DNA of 64,000 nt from an uncultured archaeon (GTDB lineage: Archaea > Asgardarchaeota > Thorarchaeia > Thorarchaeales > Thorarchaeaceae): NCBI GenBank assembly GCA_964558645.1, contig CAZLEV010000005.1, forward strand, positions 64,001-128,000, written 5' to 3'. This document shows, one piece after another, positions 1,685-19,511 of this stretch. Both the position numbers and the translations under genes were made by a program. The notes beneath the pieces are model-generated. The model was not told the DNA's origin. It searched no databases and saw only the letters and a list, made by a program, of their open reading frames with translations. How positions within the stretch are numbered: the first letter of the stretch is position 1; the number at the start of each line of letters is the position of its first letter.

Positions 1685-2448
1685 TCCTCCTTCCTGAATG
1701 CCATCCGCTTGTATGGATAGCCCCAACGCTCCTGGTACATCAGGCCCTCCAATGGGGGTCTGCTCGGACCAAGCTGCCGTGCCTGTATAGGCACTCCAAC
1801 ACAGAAGGCTGTCAGGGGCGTCCAGATAGGTGGAAGCCCAAGACGATCTCGTAGCAGCTCAGCATGCCTTGGATCTGAACATACAAGCGCCTCATATCCA
1901 CAGCCATAGCCAAGCTCTGTGGCAACCAGCCACATGTTCTGAACAGCCATTCCTGCAACGACCGATCCAAAGAGCTCGTTGGGATAGAGATAGCCAGCAT
2001 CATGCCACGACTCGCTAGCACATACCACAATGCATGTGTCGCTTTTTTCCGGATAGCGGAAGAGCTCGCCATCTCTGAGACGAGCATACACTGCAGCACG
2101 ATAGGGGTCAGTGATGAACCAGTTGCGGCCGCTTGTGAGCTCAAAGGGAGCTCCGCCAAAGGCCGTCTGTGCCATCTCTTGTGCGATGTCGGCCAAGAAT
2201 TCCTTTGTTTCTTGGTCGTCGCGAATCACGACGAACCTGATCATCAACATATTCTCCGGACTTGGCGCATGCCGCGCAGCATCGAGAATCATCTCAATGT
2301 GTTCGTCCGGGATTTTCTCACCTGTGAACTCTCGGATAGAACGCCTACTTCGGACAAGCCTGACCGAATCAAGCTCCTGAACGGTCTGCGTGTCATCAAT
2401 GGGTTCTCCTGAAGAGTCCGTCTTTTTCTCTGTGGTTCCTCCAGACAT
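1681..2448 (-). CDS. Nitroreductase family flavoprotein
   Basis: RRSIREF, ARHAPSPEN and MAVQNMWLVATELGYG are nitroreductase FMN-binding motifs. Confidence 0.9.
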   Translation of the reverse strand: MSGGTTEKKTDSSGEPIDDTQTVQELDSVRLVRSRRSIREFTGEKIPDEHIEMILDAARHAPSPENMLMIRFVVIRDDQETKEFLADIAQEMAQTAFGGAPFELTSGRNWFITDPYRAAVYARLRDGELFRYPEKSDTCIVVCASESWHDAGYLYPNELFGSVVAGMAVQNMWLVATELGYGCGYEALVCSDPRHAELLRDRLGLPPIWTPLTAFCVGVPIQARQLGPSRPPLEGLMYQERWGYPYKRMAFRKEE

Positions 2449-2485
2449 ATGATAAGACCACCTTAGTGTATCTAGTCGAATAACT

Positions 2486-2500
2486 CCTCGTTCTACGAGG
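2486..2500. promoter_or_regulatory. Inverted repeat CCTCGT-TCT-ACGAGG, candidate operator of the nitroreductase-hbd operon
   Basis: Perfect 6-bp inverted repeat between an AT-rich TATA-like box (about 2504-2516) and the ATG at 2448. Confidence 0.3.
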
Positions 2501-2707
2501 GCACATAAATGTATATCGAGAAGAGGTTAGTGAGGGGGAAACGCAGTTGAAGCTCGCGGTAAGAAGAAGAAAAGGTATCGAAGCATGAAAGCTCCCCCAG
2601 ATCTCCGAGAATAACAGAGACCCAGATGTAGGTATTGCTGAGAATATAGGCAGAGTATTGGTTCAACTACACAAGCTGAAATATGGAGCGAGAATGTCGA
2701 TTTTTCG

Positions 2708-2738
2708 GGGCGCACTGGACTCCCGGCCCCGTGCGCTC
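2708..2738. terminator. GC-rich hairpin downstream of the acd/pta-like operon
   Basis: GGGCGCAC...GTGCGCTC stem flanked by T-runs on the + strand; function not established. Confidence 0.3.
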
Positions 2739-2790
2739 TGCTTATTTTGAAAGAACAGGACCATCCGGTCCAGTCTTGATACAGTGGGGA

Positions 2791-3855
2791 CTAGACACCG
2801 AAGCATTTGAAGTCAATTGCATTACCCACTATCCGCTGAACAACAGCAATCTTTTCCTTATCCGCAGGATGAACAGAGCCTATGAGACCATCCACAATCT
2901 GGCCTGTGGAATAGGTATCCTTGTCTGTCATCATCACCGGTATACCAAGCTCACGGGCTCGAGCCACGGTAGAGAAATCAGGCCCAAGTCCACCAGTCAG
3001 AATGAGAAGATTCGTATCAGTTTCCAAAGCTGCCTGACATAGGTCAGCACGATCTCCACTGGTTATGACAGCCTTGTCCTTTGCCCGTCGGAACCATTTC
3101 AATGCGTTCTCAGGAATCATGCTTCCCACCACAAACTCGGGAATCAGAACGTCCAGCTTTTCTTCACCTAGAATCATCTGCCCATCAAGGGCGCGAAGAA
3201 TATCCCGAATTGAAGGGCTAAACAGCTCCTTCTGGTGATATATTACGCCGCAGAAATGAACACCACTATCTTCAAGGAACTTGCTGATCTTCTCAGTTAC
3301 AGTATTCTTGAGCATGGGCGGAACCATGTTGAGAATGACGCCAATCTCTTCTACACCATGCTGTTTGAAGAAGTCCCGTTGCAAGAGCACATCATCGATT
3401 GCACTGATATCAGGAAAGTGGACAAGGCAGACAACTGAGGCATCTAGATTATTGGCAATCTGCGGAGTTGAGAGTCCAACGTGAAGAAGATCCCACGGGG
3501 CAGCCGTCCCCTCTATAAGGACATAGTCAGCACTCTTAGAAACCTTCTCGTAGCACCCCAAGATTCGCTCCAGTAGTTCGTCATGTCCCACTCGTAGCAG
3601 CTCGTCGTAACTGGACAGGCTACGTACAATCGGGCAGATACAATGCAGGTCTTCATCCATTTCGAGGACTTCTTTCATGAGTGCTGCATCCTCGTCAACA
3701 GCATGCTCGGTATCACTCAGAGTATAGCTCTTCTCACCAGCGGGCTTGAAATATGACACTTTCTTACCCTGGTCAGTCAGTTTCTTAGCAACAGCCAACG
3801 CAACAAGGGTCTTCCCGCTAAGGGTCTCTCCGCTGATCACTATGCTCTTTGCCAT
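2791..3855 (-). CDS. Phosphotransacetylase N-terminal-like protein (BioD-like P-loop plus DRTGG domain)
   Basis: SGKT P-loop, YFKP, LIEG, ITSGDRAD and LILTGG; typical partner of ADP-forming acetyl-CoA synthetase. Confidence 0.88.
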   Translation of the reverse strand: MAKSIVISGETLSGKTLVALAVAKKLTDQGKKVSYFKPAGEKSYTLSDTEHAVDEDAALMKEVLEMDEDLHCICPIVRSLSSYDELLRVGHDELLERILGCYEKVSKSADYVLIEGTAAPWDLLHVGLSTPQIANNLDASVVCLVHFPDISAIDDVLLQRDFFKQHGVEEIGVILNMVPPMLKNTVTEKISKFLEDSGVHFCGVIYHQKELFSPSIRDILRALDGQMILGEEKLDVLIPEFVVGSMIPENALKWFRRAKDKAVITSGDRADLCQAALETDTNLLILTGGLGPDFSTVARARELGIPVMMTDKDTYSTGQIVDGLIGSVHPADKEKIAVVQRIVGNAIDFKCFGV

Positions 3856-7547: not shown

Positions 7548-8519
7548 ATAGTCTTAGGAGAGAATGAACCCCAGAAGACTGAGTCCATCAGGCTAGTTCG
7601 AGGGTGCCCTTGCTACAAGGTATTCGGGGACGAGAAGCTCTGTGTAAATGATGACATCATCAGAGAGATGAATGTCATTCCAACCCATCCTAATCTGTTT
7701 GCGTTTCATTCGGACAAGGAGGGAATGGAACAAGAAAGGGCAGAAGAAGAGGACATCTGCTATTGCTCGATCTACATCAACTATCCAGACAATAGAGTAT
7801 ACTGCATCTCACAGGGGTGGGTCATCCGAATCCATGGGAAAGACGTACCAGCCTCAGACCTGGAAGATGCCCTACAATTCCTCTCCACGAAGGATTTGAA
7901 CGATAGCGCAGAGATATGCTCAGAATGCTTGTACAAGTTCCTCCTCACGCTTGCAGATACATTTGCAGATGCCATGACTCGGAAGGAGAAGACTGACGAG
8001 ATCAAGAGATACGTGGACAAGTTCTCGCTTATGATAGCAATCAAACACAGCCAGATGGACGAACAGATGGAAACAATCGGCAAGGAGGAGGACATCGAAG
8101 AAGACACCGATCACTTTGCCTTCCTCAGAGGATACCTGGTGCAGTTGATGGAGCAGCAGAACCGGTTCTCAAATCTACACAGTGATCTGAGATCTGAGGG
8201 AGCTGACCAATGGGTACTTCAGCTGGTAGAAATGCGAGAGAAGTTGGCTCGTCTTGAGTATCAGTTCTATAGCCAGACTCTATTACTGCGAGTCGTCAAT
8301 GACTTTAATCTCCTTCTCAAGATGCTATCCTTCATTCTGAAGACATCAGATGAGATACTACATATCAACGAGAGAATCCATGAAGAGATTCTATCAGAGA
8401 GGTTCAATGCCTTGGTAAGAAAGGACAAGCGCTTCGTGGGGCTCAAATCCTACGCTGAGAAGAGCCGCACAGTTGAGCACAACTTCGGTAACATACTCCA
8501 GATCCTATCAAGACTCTAA
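7548..8519 (+). CDS. Uncharacterised Cys-rich protein (paralogue 2, RGCPCY family); probable ATA start
   Basis: The track starts it at 7668, but the same frame upstream encodes IRLVRGCPCYKVFGDEKLCVNDD, homologous to paralogue 1. GGAGGT at 7535-7540 precedes an in-frame ATA at 7548. Confidence 0.78.
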   Translation: MVLGENEPQKTESIRLVRGCPCYKVFGDEKLCVNDDIIREMNVIPTHPNLFAFHSDKEGMEQERAEEEDICYCSIYINYPDNRVYCISQGWVIRIHGKDVPASDLEDALQFLSTKDLNDSAEICSECLYKFLLTLADTFADAMTRKEKTDEIKRYVDKFSLMIAIKHSQMDEQMETIGKEEDIEEDTDHFAFLRGYLVQLMEQQNRFSNLHSDLRSEGADQWVLQLVEMREKLARLEYQFYSQTLLLRVVNDFNLLLKMLSFILKTSDEILHINERIHEEILSERFNALVRKDKRFVGLKSYAEKSRTVEHNFGNILQILSRL

Positions 8520-8538: not shown

Positions 8539-9486
8539 TCATGTGGATGTGCCGAACTCAGATGAGAGCCAGCGCACGTATTCTCTCACACCTCTTTCCA
8601 GAGGCGTCTTTGGCGCCCAACCCATCGACTTGAGAAGTGAGATATCTATATCAGTGATTACAACGTCCCCAGCCCATCCTCTCTCGGTACCCGTGTATTG
8701 GATGTCTGCATCTAGTCCAAGTTCATCAATCACGAGCTCTGCAATCCTTGAAACTCTGAGACGCTCGCCAGAGCTGACATTGATTGGCAGATGACCCTGC
8801 GTGGCAGTTTCACCTAGCAGGATTATAGCATCAATGGTATCGTCTACGTACATGTAGGCTTTCTCTTGAGTTCCGTCGCCTAAGACCTCTAGTCTTGAGG
8901 GATCCTGTTGTAGCTTGATGAAAAAGTCGTATATGACCCCGTGAGTGGAACGGGGACCGATTATATTACCGAGGCGAAGACTCACTGCATCAATTCCATA
9001 TAGCTCCGAGTACGAGTTCAGGTACATCTCAAAGGCCCCTTTGGCAGCGCCGTAGTTACTGATGGGTCTGAATGGCGTATCTTCGGGAGTAGGGAAGACA
9101 GCAGTCTCTCCATAGACTGTTCCACCAGAAGATGCAAAGAGGATACGTTGTACGTCGAATTTTCGGACCGCCTCTAGGACTTGCATGCCTCCTGCAACGT
9201 TGATCCAGAAGTCCGATAGGGGATGCTCCACGCTGAGGCGAACGTCAGGTTGAGCAGCGAGGTGGAAAACCAAATCCACGCCCTCCATTGCCCCCTCGAC
9301 TGTTTCGGAATCCGTGATTGAACCCTCAATGAAGACAAAGTCGGGTCGCTCGAGGTGATTCTTGATGTTGTCAAGGGACCCTCCCGACAGATCATCAAGG
9401 ACCTTCACATCATGCTTCTTCACAAGCCGGTCCACAAGATGACTTCCAATGAAACCAGCTCCGCCAGTGACCAGAACATTTGCCAT
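8539..9486 (-). CDS. galE: NAD-dependent epimerase/dehydratase (UDP-glucose 4-epimerase-like)
   Basis: MANVLVTGGAGFIGSHL, HLAA and YGAAK (SDR YxxxK). Confidence 0.9.
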   Translation of the reverse strand: MANVLVTGGAGFIGSHLVDRLVKKHDVKVLDDLSGGSLDNIKNHLERPDFVFIEGSITDSETVEGAMEGVDLVFHLAAQPDVRLSVEHPLSDFWINVAGGMQVLEAVRKFDVQRILFASSGGTVYGETAVFPTPEDTPFRPISNYGAAKGAFEMYLNSYSELYGIDAVSLRLGNIIGPRSTHGVIYDFFIKLQQDPSRLEVLGDGTQEKAYMYVDDTIDAIILLGETATQGHLPINVSSGERLRVSRIAELVIDELGLDADIQYTGTERGWAGDVVITDIDISLLKSMGWAPKTPLERGVREYVRWLSSEFGTST

Positions 9487-12407: not shown

Positions 12408-13793
12408 TCAGGCTCCAAAGAATAGCCTTCGTGCTCTCCGCCGACGTTCTTCCTCGCTCTCGTCGGATTCTGGCGGCGGCGGAGGAGGAGGAGTCTTTGC
12501 TTCCTTTGATTCGGAAGGCTCCGTTTCGTCCTCTTCCTCCTTCTCTCCGAACTCCTCTGAATCTTCAGAGTCAACGGTCGAGGGTTCATCATAAGGAGTC
12601 CAAAGGCTGGGTTCTTCTGATTCATCCTCTACAGGGCCGACTTCTGTCGGATCAGGGGGCTTCAAATCGTCTTCGTCGACATAACCTCTATGTGGTCCTT
12701 CGTCGACCTCAGCATCTTCATCGGGGTGAGTGACCTCATCCGCATCTGGTATCACCGATCGTTCATAGTCATGCCATGTGAATGAGCCAGAATCATCCGC
12801 CGCATCCTCAGACGCATCGTCTTCAGTGGTCTCGGCATCGGCCTCCACTTCGTCAGTGAACTCGTCCTCTTCAGATGGATGAGGCGATATCTCAACCCCA
12901 TATGATGAGAAAGCACGCTCCAGTTGATCAAGGGCTCCAGAAAGCCGCGGGTCTTCTCCTTCTGATGGCTCTTCGTCGTCGGTTTCGTCCCATTCAACCT
13001 TGGGAGACTCTGCCTCAGAAGAGGTGGATTCGATATCTACTTGAAAAGAGGCCTCATCTTCGGTTTCAGGCACCTCAGGTTCGTCGGGCACAGGTACAGG
13101 GGCTGAGTGTGCCTCCGATTCATGCTCTGCGTCTTCAATAATCAGATCTTGGGGTTCAGATAACTCGAACTCCTCGGAGAAGTCCCGTTCTGCATCGAAA
13201 TCTGGCTCTCGGCTCGCATCTTCGGATGTTCTCTCGATGTGGTCTATCGATGCCGACTCAACATCATCAAAGGCAGGTTCGATTCTCTCCTCTGCTTCCG
13301 CGTCTTCGGAGTCTTCATGAAGAAGGGGAGAGTCGGGAAGCTCCGCATCATCAGGTGCAACATAGTCGTCTTCAGGCGGTGCCTCAGTAGCAGAATCATC
13401 TGCAGGGTGGGTCTCACCAGAATACAAGTCCCCAGGGTCTGTAAGCGTTCGTGCAAGGGGAGAGTCCTCTACCATCGACTCTGCCTTTTCAAAGAAGTCC
13501 ACTCCAGAACCTTCTGTATGTGATGGTTCCTCTTCTCCTTCAGAGGAGAACTGGATACCCAATGCGTGACTAAGACATGACTCACACCGCTTGGCCGCGG
13601 CAATGAGAGCCTCGTGCATGAACTGATCTAGGGGCTTTGCCTTGTTTGGATTCCTGCTCCTCCACTTCAAGAAACTGTCAATCATGCGCAACGCGTCACG
13701 TACTCCGAGCCAGTACGACTCGTCTTTACTACTGAAACTCAACTGGAACACCAATACTGAGATGTCGGAATTGGAGAAAAGGCTTTCCGTCAT
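12408..13793 (-). CDS. Highly acidic, largely disordered protein with a small N-terminal helical domain, C-terminal polyproline and basic tail
   Basis: 461 aa, D/E/P-rich; ends KTPPPPPPPESDESEEERRRRARRLFFGA. Confidence 0.8.
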   Translation of the reverse strand: MTESLFSNSDISVLVFQLSFSSKDESYWLGVRDALRMIDSFLKWRSRNPNKAKPLDQFMHEALIAAAKRCESCLSHALGIQFSSEGEEEPSHTEGSGVDFFEKAESMVEDSPLARTLTDPGDLYSGETHPADDSATEAPPEDDYVAPDDAELPDSPLLHEDSEDAEAEERIEPAFDDVESASIDHIERTSEDASREPDFDAERDFSEEFELSEPQDLIIEDAEHESEAHSAPVPVPDEPEVPETEDEASFQVDIESTSSEAESPKVEWDETDDEEPSEGEDPRLSGALDQLERAFSSYGVEISPHPSEEDEFTDEVEADAETTEDDASEDAADDSGSFTWHDYERSVIPDADEVTHPDEDAEVDEGPHRGYVDEDDLKPPDPTEVGPVEDESEEPSLWTPYDEPSTVDSEDSEEFGEKEEEDETEPSESKEAKTPPPPPPPESDESEEERRRRARRLFFGA

Positions 13794-13811: not shown

Positions 13812-14249
13812 TCATTTCTGCCTTTGTTCGAGCATCTCACCGACCAGGTCTCTGAAGATCTCCGCCAGCTCAGCGCACTTCGTCTGGTCCAGGCGACCAT
13901 CCGCCGTGAAGACGCGAGTTGGATATCTTTCACCCAGATTCTCACGCACATCATTCCTGTACTTTGTTTCTAGCTCGGGTGTGGACTCGGGAAGCACAAT
14001 CAAAGCAGCGGTCGCACCCTTATAACTCAAAGAAAAGAGGAGATCCATTGCTGTGTCCTTGGGAGACATGATGAGCGCACGCACATCAGAATCTAGAGTC
14101 TTCATGTCTGCCGAGCCTATTCGTATACCATCAACGACAATCGTCTGATCCATTAGAGCCGTAAGGACTCCCTCCAATAGTTCATCATCAGGACCGACTA
14201 TGGTTATCTTGAACGAGTACCTCGATTTCTTCGCGGGCATGCTCATCAC
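13812..14249 (-). CDS. Degenerate small-GTPase-like (Rab/Ras fold) protein lacking G motifs
   Basis: YSFKITIVG, GIRIGSADM..DSDVRALI, SYKGATAALIV and RENLG..YP follow the Rab order, but GxxxxGKS, DxxG and NKxD are absent. Confidence 0.6.
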   Translation of the reverse strand: MMSMPAKKSRYSFKITIVGPDDELLEGVLTALMDQTIVVDGIRIGSADMKTLDSDVRALIMSPKDTAMDLLFSLSYKGATAALIVLPESTPELETKYRNDVRENLGERYPTRVFTADGRLDQTKCAELAEIFRDLVGEMLEQRQK

Positions 14250-14393
14250 CTGTTCAGACTTGTTGCAAGAGTGATAGATACTTAGAGCTGACGAACTGTT
14301 GATATGTCTTATGAATACCTCAACCGCAGTAGGGAATCATGCAGCCATAGATTATTAAGAAAAGGGCAAGGGGCTTGATTCTAAGGGATTAGG

Positions 14394-14741
14394 TTGACAA
14401 CAAAGGCAGAAGTGTTCAAAACGTTAGAACCCGTTCAAGACCCTGAACACCCGGTATCCATTACTGACCCAAGGATGGCGATAGTAACCATGGACTACAT
14501 CAGTGTCGATGAGGATACTATCAGAGTAGAGTTCAAACCAACGGTTCCCTACTGTCCCATGGGCGGACTGATTGGGATTCTTATCAGGCACAGGTTAGAA
14601 GAAGTCTATCCTGATGCAGAGATCGAGGTCAGGGTTTTGCCGGGATCTCACAGTCAGGAAGAGGCAGTCAATAGCATGATAAATGACAACGCGAAGTATC
14701 AGAATGTTGTGGAACAACTGAAGCAACGAGATATGCTGTAG
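14394..14741 (+). CDS. DUF59/MIP18 Fe-S assembly protein, Cia2/CIAO2 (FAM96)-like
   Basis: DPEHP, FKPTVPYCPMGGLIG and PGSHSQEEAVN. Confidence 0.85.
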   Translation: MTTKAEVFKTLEPVQDPEHPVSITDPRMAIVTMDYISVDEDTIRVEFKPTVPYCPMGGLIGILIRHRLEEVYPDAEIEVRVLPGSHSQEEAVNSMINDNAKYQNVVEQLKQRDML

Positions 14742-14762: not shown

Positions 14763-15110
14763 TTGAAGACCTCCGATTACATTTTGGGGGCAGGAGGCAT
14801 TCTGCTCATCGTCGGAGCAGTCCTAGTGGCATTTGCTGGATGGCAAGGAGAGAGTTTCATCATTTTGTTCCCCTTCTTCATCGCTGGAGACTTAGGCCCA
14901 ATCGTTGTCGTCTTCGTGGTTATCAGCTTACTACTACCCCTGATGCTTTTCGCACTGTTTCTGAGAAACGCCTCACAGGTGAGTAGGGGCCAGGTTCCTG
15001 ATTGGCGCCAGGGAGAAACATGCCCCGGCTGTGGAACTACTCTTCCACAGCAAGCAGAATTCTGTTACAAGTGCGGCCGACCTCTACACGAGAAACACGA
15101 TATGCGCTGA
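14763..15110 (+). CDS. Membrane protein with C-terminal zinc ribbon
   Basis: Two to three hydrophobic segments followed by CPGCG...FCYKCG. Confidence 0.8.
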   Translation: MKTSDYILGAGGILLIVGAVLVAFAGWQGESFIILFPFFIAGDLGPIVVVFVVISLLLPLMLFALFLRNASQVSRGQVPDWRQGETCPGCGTTLPQQAEFCYKCGRPLHEKHDMR

Positions 15111-15147: not shown

Positions 15148-15606
15148 TTGAAACGGAAGATACGATTCCTGAAGCCTTCAGATTTGGATGATGTGGAGAG
15201 AATAGAGAGCTTGTCATTTCCCGAGCCGTGGGACTTCGAGATTTTTGAGATTCTGGCGTCGTACCACGGCAGGGCGAAGAAGAGAGGGGGCGAGAAACTG
15301 TACATGTATGTGCTCGAAGAGAACGGCGTGACGGGGTATGTGGTCTGGGAAGAATCTGCAAACGAAGGACATATTCTAAACCTAGCAGTTCGAGAAGACA
15401 AGAGAGGCAGTGGTCGTGGAAGAGAACTGCTTCTCTTCGCCCTCAGAAGACAAGAGCTTAGTGGAATGACTTCTTGCATCCTCGAATGCAGAGAAAGCAA
15501 TGCAATTGCACGACGTTTCTATGAGAGCGTTGGCATGACCCAAGTGGATCGTGTCGCCGGATACTACGGAGATCAGGACGCCATCATCTACAGATGGGAC
15601 TTCTAG
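15148..15606 (+). CDS. rimI: RimI/Ard1-like GNAT N-acetyltransferase
   Basis: IESLSFPEPW, HILNLAV, RGSGRG, LECRESN..ARRFY and YYGD..DA. Start (TTG) is approximate. Confidence 0.88.
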   Translation: MKRKIRFLKPSDLDDVERIESLSFPEPWDFEIFEILASYHGRAKKRGGEKLYMYVLEENGVTGYVVWEESANEGHILNLAVREDKRGSGRGRELLLFALRRQELSGMTSCILECRESNAIARRFYESVGMTQVDRVAGYYGDQDAIIYRWDF

Positions 15607-18600
15607 CTGCGTCTTGATTCGACCAGACGCGGCCCGAGTACATCGTGATACAGCCTCAGATAGGCAGGGTCAGATGAAACCAACGCAACTGGACGACCTC
15701 CGTCTGTCGAACCACCTAGTAACAACTCCTTCTGGTCACAGAGCGCCATATCATACGGGTGGTCAGTTTCCCAGACTCTCCAGCCGGCAAGATTCTTGAG
15801 AGCAGCGGGTTGTTCTTCCGATCGGGGAACCACCAGAACCTTTCTTCGCGGAGTATTCACCTTCGCGAGCTTCTTAAGATCCAAGCTCTCAACGTTGACA
15901 ACAGATACGAGTACGGATTCTTCTGCACGCTCAGCCATCTCTACCATGTGAGCATAGATTTCATCTGCACCTGACACATACCACGTCTTCTCGCTCGGCA
16001 GAGTCAGTACAGACTTGCTTGCTGTGTGGATTGCGTCCAGAACATCCTTAGTATTCGTTGCGAGTTCCTTAGCTGTGTTGACGCTCTCCTCGATTCCCTG
16101 CTTGAGTTCCTTGCCGTCGTTTCTTATTGACGAAAGCAAGGTCTTTGCTGACTTGTCAGTGTCACTCTCAAAATGGTTGAGCAGATCATTGCGTTTCTCT
16201 GTCAAGGTTGACGTCTTGGTAGAAGCGTCGTTATTGGCCTTGGTGACGACTTCTCTCAGCTCCGTACCTTTCACACCCAGCTCGTTCCGCATCTCCTCGA
16301 CGAGCTGATATGCATCATTGCTCAGCTTGGTCTTGAGTTCGAGAGCAAGATTCTCAAACCTTCGAGACGCCGTCAGATTCGAGGACACAACTGCCTCACG
16401 GGTCTTCTCAAAGAGATCTTCACGGCGCCGCTCTAGCCTATTTGAGGCGTTCTCGACCAAGGATGTGTAGTCTGTTGTCAAAGACTCAACAGAATCCAAG
16501 TACTCCTCTCTGTCAGAAGTGAGAGACTCGATTATATCGGACTTTCTCTCCTGTGTCCAGACTCCCGCATCTTCGAGGTTCGCTTCAACCGTAGCTGTCA
16601 GTTTCTTTTCGAGGTTGGATACAGCCTCCGTTCCTGTCCTCAAGCGAGTCTTCGTGGCCTGTTGGAATTCATTAAGTCGGGCCTTGAATGACGAGCTGGT
16701 CTTCTCCAACAAGGTGTTTACTGACTTCTCGAACTGCTCCACTGTATGTTCGCCTCGATCACTGATACCATCCGAAACTTCCTCTGATGCTTTGGTTAGA
16801 TTCTGGCTTGCAAGCTGGATATCCTCAGTCAACTTGTTTCCCAAAGCCCCCGAGGAGGTAGACACATTCTCCAGCGCGTTTTCAACCCATTGCGCGGCTG
16901 CATCGAACGCTTCGTTTGCCTCGTCCCTTCGTTGCTCAATGGCTGCAGATATCTCGTCATTCACATCCCTGCGGATATCAATGATCTCCTTTTCACGCGC
17001 GACGAGCTGTTCCTGGTATGACTCCATACTTTCGATAGACCTATTGCTGATTTCAGTTGATAGTCTGTCAATCTTCTTGGTTGTGTCTGCAAGCAGACGC
17101 TGTTTGGCGTCAGCCTGCTCTGAAGCGTAGTTGTCCACAGTTGACCGCATACTCGCTGAAGTGCGAGCAAAGGAATTCTTGACTGATTCCCGAGTATCTG
17201 CGACTCTGTCCTGGATGTTGGACTGAGCACCCGTGACTGAGGTCTCGAACTCGCGAGACGTCTGGACAAGGTTTTCGCCCATCTGTTTTATCGTTCCGTG
17301 CCGTATCTGATCAAGATTGTCCTCTACAGCTTGGAGATTGGACTCGATCATTGAATGGGTACCGGCTAGTTTCTCAGATAGCTGAGCCTGCTTTTCGACA
17401 CTGAAGTCATTCAGGCTCTTGCGAGTCATGCTAACAGAGTTCACAATATCGTCAATACGGAGAGCAATCTCTGAAGTATACTCCTGCTGCAGCTTGAGGG
17501 AGTCTGCCTGTAGTGCTTCAATCTCTGTCTTGATGGAATTCTTGAATTCAGTATGAGCAGAGCTGATCAGATCGCGTGATTCCATCGTCTGACTGGTGAT
17601 AAGACCATTAAACGTTGATTCAAGGCTCTGGGTCAGGGCAATGAATTGACGAGTCATCTCCTCAAGATTGAGATGAAACTCGCCTCGAATCTCTTCGGCC
17701 TGACGGTCGATGCGTTGAACTTGATCATCAATGGTCGAATCAACCTCTTTCTGCACTCTATCGGCCTGAGAAGCGAGTGTTGATACGCTCTGTGCTAACC
17801 TGTCATCCAGTTGGGAGTTCAGCGTCTGGTAAAGATTCTTTGTTTCTTTGATGTTCTTCTGGATCTTTGAGCTGATCTCCGTGACAGTCTCTTCGAGTGT
17901 TTTGCCGAACCCGCTCTCCAAGTCGTTGACAAAGCGTGATACACCCGACAGGACTGTTTCATTCTTTGTCTTCACCGAGCTCTGTATCGTTCCGAATGAG
18001 GACTTGAGTCTGCTACTCATACTGCTCGTCAAGGACTTGAGCTCATCAGCCTGAACAGACAGAGTGTCATTGACATCGTTGATAACACCCTCCAGATTGG
18101 AGAAGACATCTTGTTCGCCTTCTTCAGCCCAAGAATCAAGCTTGGCCTGTAGCTTTGCCCTGACCTCCTCGATGCTTGCTTGCTCCGAAGCATTCTGCTC
18201 ATCGAGTAGTCTGATCACTTCAGCACGAGCTTCTGTAACATGTGCTCCAAATCTATTCTGCATACCAGCGACCAAGGTCTTCAGTTCATCATGATTCTCT
18301 GAAATCATAGACGCAAGACGTTCGAGATGACTTCCCAGTGCATTCTTGATGTCCTCCAAGTAGGCCACATCTGTGGCCTTAATCTGCTCAAACTGTGCAG
18401 CTATCGACTGACCCGAGGAGGCCATGTCAGCTTCCACTTCATCTTTCCATTTCTCAACCTCGTCAACAAGCTCGTCGGTTAAGGTCGCCGTAGTACCTAT
18501 TCTGTTCCCTGCCACACCAGCATATTCGCGAAAGTGTTCCCTGTTCACGTCAACAAGCTCGCTCAACGACTTCTCCGCGCTGACACGATTATTGCGAAGT

Positions 18601-19511
18601 TCCTCCGAGATATTCTCGACAACTTGGGCCAGACCCTCATCTACAGAGCCTAGGTTCTCAGTTGTACGTGAGACCGAATCCTCTATGGAAGACTTCATGT
18701 TTGCAGACATCTTCTCCAAAACACTCTGTAACGCCACCTGGGAATCAGTCATTGCTTTCTCGACCACCGTCTTGGCCTGGTCAACCAAGGCAACCGCCTT
18801 TTCTCTGAGTTGAGATGCATTCTCTGATGCACTTGTCTTGTCCTTGTCCAGTGTTTCTGAGAATAAACCCTCGATCTCCTCCAGAGAGGAATGCATCGTC
18901 GCCTGAATGGAATCGAGCTCAGCCTGCAGCGTGGAGAGCTGCTCGCCTAGGTCACTATCGAGGGTAGCACCCATTGCGTCCAATACGGACTCTACTCGCT
19001 CGGAGAACCCTGTCAAGACTTTGTCAGCAACACTGCCAACAATCTCAATCTGGGATTGTACATTGTCAAGCATCTCGTCTTCATATACATCGAGTTCGTC
19101 CTTTAAACCGGCAACGGCCGATTTCCGACCTTCCGTGAAATCCGTGGATGTTTCTTTAGCCAACTCCAGTTGCTTGTCGATCCTGTTCTGTATTTGGTCT
19201 TCAAGAGAACTGGCCTCTTCAACAAAGGATGACAAAGTGCTTCCGACGGCCAAACTAGGTGAAATGGCCTGATAGACGGGCACAATCCCCTCAATTTCTG
19301 TAACAAGCCCCTTCTTCACCAATCGGCTTAGCGTTCTCTTGACACTGCTGAGGGTGTCACCGGTTATCACTGAGAGAGCTCCGGCCGTCATGTTGCCACC
19401 AACATAGACTGGTAACAATACTTCAGCCTCTTTCTTCGTTACTCCCAGATTCTTCTCTATCGTCGACATTTGTTTCTCCAATGCTGTATCTCCACTCATA
19501 CTGCATTCCAC
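15603..19511 (-). CDS. TrmB-family protein: wHTH, about 1,080-aa helical rod, and C-terminal TrmB effector/PLD-like domain
   Basis: N-terminus LGVTKKEAEV...LSRLVKKGLV...VYQAISP; C-terminus WYVSGADEIYAHMVEMAERAEESVLVSV. Confidence 0.8.
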   Translation of the reverse strand: MECSMSGDTALEKQMSTIEKNLGVTKKEAEVLLPVYVGGNMTAGALSVITGDTLSSVKRTLSRLVKKGLVTEIEGIVPVYQAISPSLAVGSTLSSFVEEASSLEDQIQNRIDKQLELAKETSTDFTEGRKSAVAGLKDELDVYEDEMLDNVQSQIEIVGSVADKVLTGFSERVESVLDAMGATLDSDLGEQLSTLQAELDSIQATMHSSLEEIEGLFSETLDKDKTSASENASQLREKAVALVDQAKTVVEKAMTDSQVALQSVLEKMSANMKSSIEDSVSRTTENLGSVDEGLAQVVENISEELRNNRVSAEKSLSELVDVNREHFREYAGVAGNRIGTTATLTDELVDEVEKWKDEVEADMASSGQSIAAQFEQIKATDVAYLEDIKNALGSHLERLASMISENHDELKTLVAGMQNRFGAHVTEARAEVIRLLDEQNASEQASIEEVRAKLQAKLDSWAEEGEQDVFSNLEGVINDVNDTLSVQADELKSLTSSMSSRLKSSFGTIQSSVKTKNETVLSGVSRFVNDLESGFGKTLEETVTEISSKIQKNIKETKNLYQTLNSQLDDRLAQSVSTLASQADRVQKEVDSTIDDQVQRIDRQAEEIRGEFHLNLEEMTRQFIALTQSLESTFNGLITSQTMESRDLISSAHTEFKNSIKTEIEALQADSLKLQQEYTSEIALRIDDIVNSVSMTRKSLNDFSVEKQAQLSEKLAGTHSMIESNLQAVEDNLDQIRHGTIKQMGENLVQTSREFETSVTGAQSNIQDRVADTRESVKNSFARTSASMRSTVDNYASEQADAKQRLLADTTKKIDRLSTEISNRSIESMESYQEQLVAREKEIIDIRRDVNDEISAAIEQRRDEANEAFDAAAQWVENALENVSTSSGALGNKLTEDIQLASQNLTKASEEVSDGISDRGEHTVEQFEKSVNTLLEKTSSSFKARLNEFQQATKTRLRTGTEAVSNLEKKLTATVEANLEDAGVWTQERKSDIIESLTSDREEYLDSVESLTTDYTSLVENASNRLERRREDLFEKTREAVVSSNLTASRRFENLALELKTKLSNDAYQLVEEMRNELGVKGTELREVVTKANNDASTKTSTLTEKRNDLLNHFESDTDKSAKTLLSSIRNDGKELKQGIEESVNTAKELATNTKDVLDAIHTASKSVLTLPSEKTWYVSGADEIYAHMVEMAERAEESVLVSVVNVESLDLKKLAKVNTPRRKVLVVPRSEEQPAALKNLAGWRVWETDHPYDMALCDQKELLLGGSTDGGRPVALVSSDPAYLRLYHDVLGPRLVESRRS

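Follow-up and report, generated by a model that had tools for sequence, protein, structure and literature searches.

Does an archaeal gene that keeps the layout of a Rab GTPase, with the nucleotide-binding motifs gone, encode a working protein, and with what could that protein interact? The question is raised by one open reading frame (ORF) of the window, by which we mean the whole 64,000-nucleotide stretch of thorarchaeal DNA analyzed here. In this ORF, listed at 13812-14249 on the minus strand, an earlier note made from the letters alone had recognized the Rab layout, read the G1 motif as GPDDELL and G3 as MSPKD, noted G4 as absent, and pointed to a gene for an acidic polyproline protein 18 nt away. 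The ORF and its translation do carry the quoted segments (YSFKITIVG, GPDDELL, GIRIGSADMKTLDSDVRALI, MSPKD, SYKGATAALIV and VRENLGERYP), and 18 nt separate its stop codon from the next gene on the same strand, which starts at ATG 13793. Three candidate starts are available, namely, GTG 14249, ATG 14246 and ATG 14240. The last is the likely one, because GGTGA stands 5 nt upstream of it and the 142-aa database entry uses the same start. The product, referred to here as pseudo-Rab, is not recognized by Pfam or NCBIfam, the Pfam search at E-values up to 1 returning a chance match to GARS_N alone, and it is absent from the 28 PF00071 (Ras) matches of the genome. The features of pseudo-Rab and of the acidic protein are collected in Table 1.

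Divergent from pseudo-Rab are the genes for a DUF59/Fe−S assembly protein (Pfam FeS_assembly_P; 14394-14741, plus strand) and for a small membrane protein with a C-terminal zinc ribbon (14763-15110, plus strand). The DUF59 gene adjoining pseudo-Rab was undetected in 5 of the 15 loci read, the sister-family locus included. Positions 15603-19511 of the minus strand encode a protein of 1302 aa that is TrmB-like at the N-terminus and helical over its long middle. Its length (~1300 aa) and position are kept in nearly all loci read, again including the sister family; at one locus it is apparently split into two ORFs.

Table 1. Positions in the window of the pseudo-Rab gene, the adjoining acidic gene and their main features.
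Feature	Position	Strand	Remarks
Pseudo-Rab gene	13812..14240	-	142 aa from ATG 14240; stop codon 13812-13814; from ORF and translation
GGTGA, putative Shine-Dalgarno-like box	14246..14250	-	5 nt before ATG 14240; read from the sequence
β1 and degenerate P-loop, YSFKITIVGPDDELL, residues 8-22	14175..14219	-	No Lys-Ser/Thr
VDGIRIG, residues 36-42, switch I/β2 position	14115..14135	-	Invariant, or a close variant, in the family
LIMSPKD, residues 56-62, end of β3, G3 position	14055..14075	-	From alignment
SYKGATAALIV, residues 72-82, end of α2/β4	13995..14027	-	Matches Rab YYRGA..IV
α3 (YRNDVRENLG, conserved) and β5 (PTRVFT), then ADGRLD	13887..13961	-	ADGRLD in the place of NKxD
Single C-terminal helix, residues 119-141	13818..13886	-	No α4-β6, no SAK (G5)
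Acidic protein, candidate partner, 461 aa	12408..13793	-	32% Asp+Glu, pI 4.05; directly downstream
N-terminal helical hairpin of the acidic protein (YWLGVRDALRM ... AAKRCESCL)	13560..13730	-	From alignment and AlphaFold model
WTPYDEPS motif in the acidic disordered region	12579..12602	-	Conserved
Polyproline run of the acidic protein	12471..12491	-	7 Pro; about 5-10 in most orthologues listed
C-terminal tail of the acidic protein, EEERRRRARRLFFGA	12411..12455	-	Unique in the genome

The likeness of pseudo-Rab to Rab proteins was assessed first by sequence. When all 22,334 ORFs from the six frames of this genome were searched with the HMM of the pseudo-Rab family, it retrieved pseudo-Rab itself and then only six Ras-family GTPases (E-values from 6.6e−5 to 0.1), all of which are among the best PF00071 matches of this genome. 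Profile-profile comparison by hhalign of the family with 14 Rab-like proteins from the same genome gave a probability of 95.2% and an E-value of 2.5e−8 over residues 5-121. A profile search of PDB sequences retrieved Ypt32, Ypt31, Rab22, Rab5 and Rab21 among mixed weak matches, the best Rab having an E-value of 0.034 and the top match being a non-GTPase, CaBP4 (E-value = 0.017).

The structure prediction agrees with these searches. The AlphaFold model of pseudo-Rab (pLDDT 76.5, pTM 0.73), built on a shallow alignment of 16 sequences, has five strands and four helices arranged, according to DSSP, in the order β1-α1-β2-β3-α2-β4-α3-β5-helix. The matches listed by Foldseek for this model are almost all Rabs, the top one with an E-value of 5e−7. 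When the model was compared with 48,161 chains by VIA, independently of Foldseek, the best 50 matches were all G domains of the GTPase fold (TRAFAC class), mostly of small GTPases; Rab23 came first (Z 15.3, rmsd 2.5 Å, 135 residues aligned), followed by Ypt32, Sec4, Rab3C and Rab32. With its antiparallel β2-β3 hairpin and its profile similarity, the predicted model has the Ras-like G-domain fold. Thus, on three independent lines (family HMM, profile-profile comparison and structure), the likeness to Rabs exceeds chance.

Features of the Rab family proper are fewer. Rabs are marked by the motifs RabF1-F5 (IGVDF, KLQIW, RFRSIT, YYRGA and LVYDIT) and by a C-terminal Cys prenylation motif. Only the RabF4-like SYKGA and the YxFKI of β1 are clear in pseudo-Rab, the other RabF motifs being degenerate. 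SYKGATAALIV aligns both with YRGA.GAL.V of the Rab-like proteins of the genome and with Ypt32. Pseudo-Rab has no C-terminal Cys prenylation motif, and Asgard Rab-like proteins likewise lack one (PMC10933270).

Inspection of the alignments revealed that each of the five G motifs is affected. In place of GxxxxGK[ST], the P-loop of pseudo-Rab reads GPDD and is four residues shorter, and hhalign sets a gap of four columns against VGKT of the Rab-like proteins encoded in the genome. Residues G16, P17 and D19 are invariant in the pseudo-Rab alignment, and GP[DEN][DE] is present in every row from Thorarchaeia. The column of the switch-I Thr (G2) is occupied by Asp or Gly of VDGIRIG, and DxxGQ of G3 is replaced by an invariant MSP (MSP-K-D) in Thorarchaeia and by W-x-P-H/K in relatives outside the class; the hhalign register may be one residue off at G2 and G3, and no register brings either motif back. 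At the position of NKxD (G4), ADGRLD is found here and VGSDID in many orthologues. The DSSP assignment of the model has only one helix after β5, and hhalign ends at residue 121. Since there is this single helix, and since the superposition with Rab23 reaches chain residue 175, the end of α5, with ~36 Rab residues left unmatched, the α4-β6 unit carrying G5 appears, as far as the model goes, to have been deleted. By comparison, the Rab-like proteins of the same genome (n = 14) have GxxxxGK[ST], the switch-I Thr, DxxGQ, NKxD and a SAK-type motif. The loss is not a peculiarity of this sequence. All 50 distinct orthologues are devoid of any G motif, with GK[ST] in none of them, and they share GP[DEN][DE], VDGIRIG or a close variant, MSP and YRNE.R.N.G..PTR.

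To define the family, we considered its distribution. A word-indexed database search yielded 16 pseudo-Rab clusters, assigned to Candidatus Thorarchaeota wherever a name was given, and an exhaustive search of representatives yielded 13 clusters with one false match and no true GTPase. The 1402-aa protein P0029 was rejected as a family member, being a low-complexity false positive. At the level of genomes, pseudo-Rab was found in 76 of the 87 genomes of the class Thorarchaeia (23 of the 24 of high quality) and in all 17 genera, and it is single-copy in nearly all carriers. Comparison with two orthologues from the same genus gave dN/dS of 0.06 and 0.10. Pseudo-Rab is a real gene under purifying selection; a decaying pseudogene is rejected by the class-wide conservation and by dN/dS of about 0.06-0.10. 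Many orthologues have a polybasic N-terminus (median of 7 Lys/Arg within the 16 residues that precede β1), which could make contact with membranes or with the acidic arm of the neighbouring protein.

Outside the class, 6 of the 313 genomes of the phylum match the pseudo-Rab profile, and these belong to three other Asgard families. One of the three has a tandem pair of pseudo-Rab paralogues. Both tandem copies are matched by a profile made from Thorarchaeia only (E-values of about 1e−20 to 1e−21), which, judged on sequence, makes them one family with pseudo-Rab of Thorarchaeia. The tandem proteins have GP[DN]D and VDG at the same positions and W-x-P at the position of MSP, but differ from the thorarchaeal ones in being only about 30-35% identical to them, in forming two adjacent paralogues and in having no acidic hairpin neighbour. 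W-x-P at the G3 position of the relatives outside the class recalls the Trp in β3 of Rabs. The other two Asgard families have longer relatives with a C-terminal extension and a Lys-rich tail. In L076 (7544-8359, minus strand), L077 (8012-8584, plus strand), L078 (7370-7951, minus strand) and the protein P0030, this extension has a conserved G.P.[FY]..D..G ... G.[IV]PLF motif, and an acidic stretch lies between this motif and the Lys-rich tail. A search made for longer or fused forms of pseudo-Rab found none, which is weak evidence.

Taken together, these results bear out most of what could be read from the letters alone. The assignments of G1 and G3 and the absence of G4 hold in the translation, in hhalign and in the 50 orthologues. 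The Ras-like fold that the earlier note expected is the one predicted, the loss of motifs that it proposed to look for in orthologues is general, and the named homologues agree with its Asgard origin. The proximity of the acidic gene also recurs in other genomes, as described below. Going beyond that note, the domain is truncated, with no α4-β6 in its model, the family extends beyond Thorarchaeia, and the family of the presumed partner also occurs alone.

The acidic protein itself consists of a conserved N-terminal hairpin and a conserved tail around an acidic disordered middle of variable length. Mean column identity in the alignment of the hairpin is 61%, and its AlphaFold model has two helices of ~25 residues each (pLDDT 76). 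W[ST]PYDEPS or a close variant is found in most of the 15 orthologues listed, though its surroundings vary. Among the long ORFs of the genome (>110 aa), a run of at least 6 Pro is unique to this protein. The tail is almost invariant, RRLFFG[ATVD] being common to 14 of the 15 listed orthologues from family f1. The hairpin returned nothing from Protein Atlas, only chance matches from a search of PDB sequences, and nothing from Foldseek at E-values up to 0.001; its VIA matches (Z of 7 or less) are generic dimerisation hairpins and are uninformative. A Pfam search for profilin gave no match, and as the controls were equally without a match, this result has no bearing on a polyproline reader. The second helix of the hairpin contains a CxxC motif (KRCESCL) that is nearly invariant in Thorarchaeia and absent from the sister-family version and from some of those in outgroups; on dimerisation, it may form a metal or disulfide site.

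How closely are the two genes tied? In 40 of the 43 genomes whose pseudo-Rab locus was read, the acidic gene lies directly downstream on the same strand, the hairpin motif beginning 61-121 nt past the pseudo-Rab ORF. In the sister family (one genome) pseudo-Rab is inverted and still adjoins a short partner homologue of 156 aa. In one of the 43 genomes a contig ends between the two genes, and in G039 they are on different contigs. In this last genome, which is 99% complete, the gene that comes after pseudo-Rab (L055, G039:C26, 1477-1992, plus strand) is unrelated and oppositely oriented (2054-3430, minus strand), and the split represents either a true rearrangement exactly between both genes or an assembly artefact. 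Synteny extends throughout the class over the whole region, from an aminotransferase gene to the one encoding the 1302-aa coiled-coil protein, so that adjacency by itself is modest evidence. Pseudo-Rab and the acidic gene are missing from an identical set of 11 genomes of Thorarchaeia. The flanking Fe−S assembly gene was likewise not found in 5 of these 11, and in G059, a closed-looking genome without both genes, the region is rearranged. These shared absences probably represent missing regions and are not counted as co-loss. At the corresponding locus of G059 (L089, G059:C1, 10236-10796), the DUF362 neighbour matches only residues 82-267 and contains two TAG stops, and synteny breaks there.

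Outside the class, the two families also occur apart. Three other Asgard families have pseudo-Rab and no acidic partner, and two others have the acidic-hairpin family with no detectable pseudo-Rab; since each occurs alone, neither strictly needs the other. In one other Asgard family, 18 of the 19 genomes encode an acidic-hairpin protein and no pseudo-Rab. Such pseudo-Rab-free proteins, at L079 (6018-6731), L080 (5977-6735) and L085 (5964-6746), all on the plus strand, have the same hairpin, a Pro/Glu-rich middle and the C-terminal sequence EEEEPKRRTFFF. At L079, genes for an Arf-like true GTPase (8812-9345, minus strand) and a Roadblock/LC7 protein (7895-8272, minus strand) are located downstream at a distance of 1-2 kb and are convergently oriented. 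The same family as L079 has, in addition, a second paralogue of 70-80 aa that consists of the hairpin only (L083, 5995-6237, and L084, 5999-6211, both on the minus strand), and most whole-genome matches to it have one in-frame stop nearby.

The explanation that we consider probable is that pseudo-Rab is a shortened Rab/Ras-like class-i pseudoGTPase serving as a constitutive protein-binding module, with the downstream protein as its most likely ligand. The two parts of this explanation are not equally secure. That the protein is a pseudoGTPase is very likely; in its predicted fold and in its sequence we find what defines class i, a GTPase fold with the G motifs gone. That it binds the downstream acidic protein is put forward more tentatively, at slightly less than even odds. 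Pseudo-Rab is predicted from its sequence to bind no nucleotide. A GTP switch is not expected, because there is no Lys-Ser/Thr, because an acidic loop stands instead, and because the base-recognition motifs and β6 are missing, a line of reasoning that follows established G-domain biochemistry. The protein would have descended from Rab-like GTPases of Asgard archaea and subsequently lost both GTP binding and hydrolysis. Its most conserved residues are those of the former P-loop, β2/interswitch, the start of switch II and α3. In real Rabs, these elements form the effector face, and the position of the conserved residues on it suggests that a binding surface has been retained. The two genes are probably co-transcribed. 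Pseudo-Rab might then bind the acidic protein constitutively through the N-terminal helical hairpin of the latter, as in Rab-effector pairs; alternatively, the Arg-rich tail of the acidic protein could dock into the acidic GPDD pocket. The acidic region, the polyproline run and the C-terminal motif would then recruit further factors. We regard as unlikely a more elaborate version, a eukaryote-like Asgard scaffold pair in which a nucleotide-free Rab-fold head would sit permanently on an effector-type hairpin. In this version, cytoskeletal or membrane-remodelling factors would be recruited by motifs of the acidic arm (the Trp-containing acidic motif, the polyproline run and a C-terminal helix of basic-aromatic character), and the pair would be a prokaryotic forerunner of the CENP-M/AAGAB hubs.

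The acidic neighbour could instead be a syntenic bystander, pseudo-Rab acting on the real Rab-like GTPases of the genome or on their regulators, which it might do by pairing with a G domain that is active or by serving as a decoy to a GEF, GAP or effector. Pairing of this kind is known in septins, where pseudoGTPase subunits pair with active G domains. The 28 Ras-family matches in the genome would offer possible targets, the tandem paralogues of one Asgard family suggest G-domain-to-G-domain pairing, the family lives without the acidic partner in three Asgard families, and with the whole region syntenic, adjacency may lack functional meaning. However, the two genes have stayed adjacent in the sister family despite the inversion, every locus of family f1 that has both genes shows short intergenic gaps, and the conserved neighbourhood contains no active-GTPase gene. 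On balance, we find this explanation unlikely.

A rebuilt pocket for a nucleotide or for some other ligand, phosphorylated or small, which would make pseudo-Rab a non-canonical or class-ii/iii GTPase-fold protein, is less probable still. Nowhere is the protein more conserved than in the pocket region (GPDD, VDGIRIG and MSP), which shows that the site is still used for something. Nevertheless, it offers no Lys-Ser/Thr for phosphates, the invariant D19 (after the D/E/N position) makes the loop acidic, there is no NKxD or SAK for a base, and the region of β6 that bears G5 is missing. Finally, a convergent likeness, with pseudo-Rab being another three-layer α/β domain such as a CheY-like receiver, is highly improbable and was rejected for its wrong topology in the predicted model: VGPDD and LIMSP loosely recall, by eye only, the DD and D-x-x-MP motifs of receivers, but the antiparallel β2-β3 hairpin without an intervening helix is G-domain topology and not (βα)5, neither Response_reg nor any other Pfam family that would speak for it matches at E-values up to 1, and the best 50 structural matches are all GTPase-fold G domains, with sequence matches in the own genome solely to the Ras family.

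As a pseudoGTPase, then, pseudo-Rab may be compared with several known systems. Closest are the Asgard Rab-like (RasL) GTPases such as Thor-Rab (Tran et al. 2024, PMC10933270) and the 14 Rab-like paralogues encoded in the genome, which have the same fold and order of elements, share Y-x-F-K-I..G in β1 and Y-[KR]-G-A...I-V in α2/β4, and are the only detectable sequence relatives of pseudo-Rab; neither has a C-terminal prenylation motif. Unlike them, pseudo-Rab has lost the five G motifs and lacks α4-β6, is 142 aa long versus about 175-190 aa, and, in contrast to the Rab-like GTPases of the genome, scores below the Pfam Ras threshold. Tran et al., who solved the structure of a genuine Thor-Rab, make no mention of dead relatives (PMC10933270), and a survey of the Asgard Ras superfamily left divergent sequences unannotated. 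Because pseudo-Rab scores below the Pfam Ras profile, surveys of Asgard small GTPases have probably missed this family.

Most of what is known about pseudoGTPases concerns scaffolds and assembly factors of eukaryotes. Class-i representatives, namely, CENP-M (PMC4080450), the psGD of AAGAB (PMC12490416) and pG1/pG2 of p190RhoGAP (PMC5593906), are fixed interaction or assembly modules. Like pseudo-Rab, they have a small-GTPase fold without nucleotide-binding motifs, whereas pseudo-Rab is a stand-alone archaeal protein of 142 aa in which the domain is further truncated. CENP-M, AAGAB and p190RhoGAP are absent from the PDB profile, Foldseek and VIA matches listed, a distant relation being possible. 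Pseudo-Rab is probably an independent case of motif loss in an archaeal Rab-like lineage. The Ras-like domain of the dynein light intermediate chain (PMC4359372) likewise uses a Ras-like fold as a structural adaptor; it is eukaryotic and has large insertions, and no relation to pseudo-Rab was detected. PseudoGTPases have been said to range "from bacteria to human" (PMC12490416). In the literature searched, we found nothing linking a pseudoGTPase with Asgard archaea and no archaeal example described; where pseudoGTPases and archaea are mentioned together there, it is in general reviews on pseudoenzymes and pseudokinases only. The pseudo-Rab family is an undescribed one and very likely an archaeal pseudoGTPase.

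Together with the motif-bearing disordered protein, pseudo-Rab would provide a small and easily expressed two-protein system in which partners of an Asgard GTPase fold can be tested. A dead Rab that is near-universal, mostly single-copy and strongly selected in Thorarchaeia, with relatives in other Asgard lineages, would mean that the closest prokaryotic relatives of eukaryotes had already gone from a switch to a fixed binding module.
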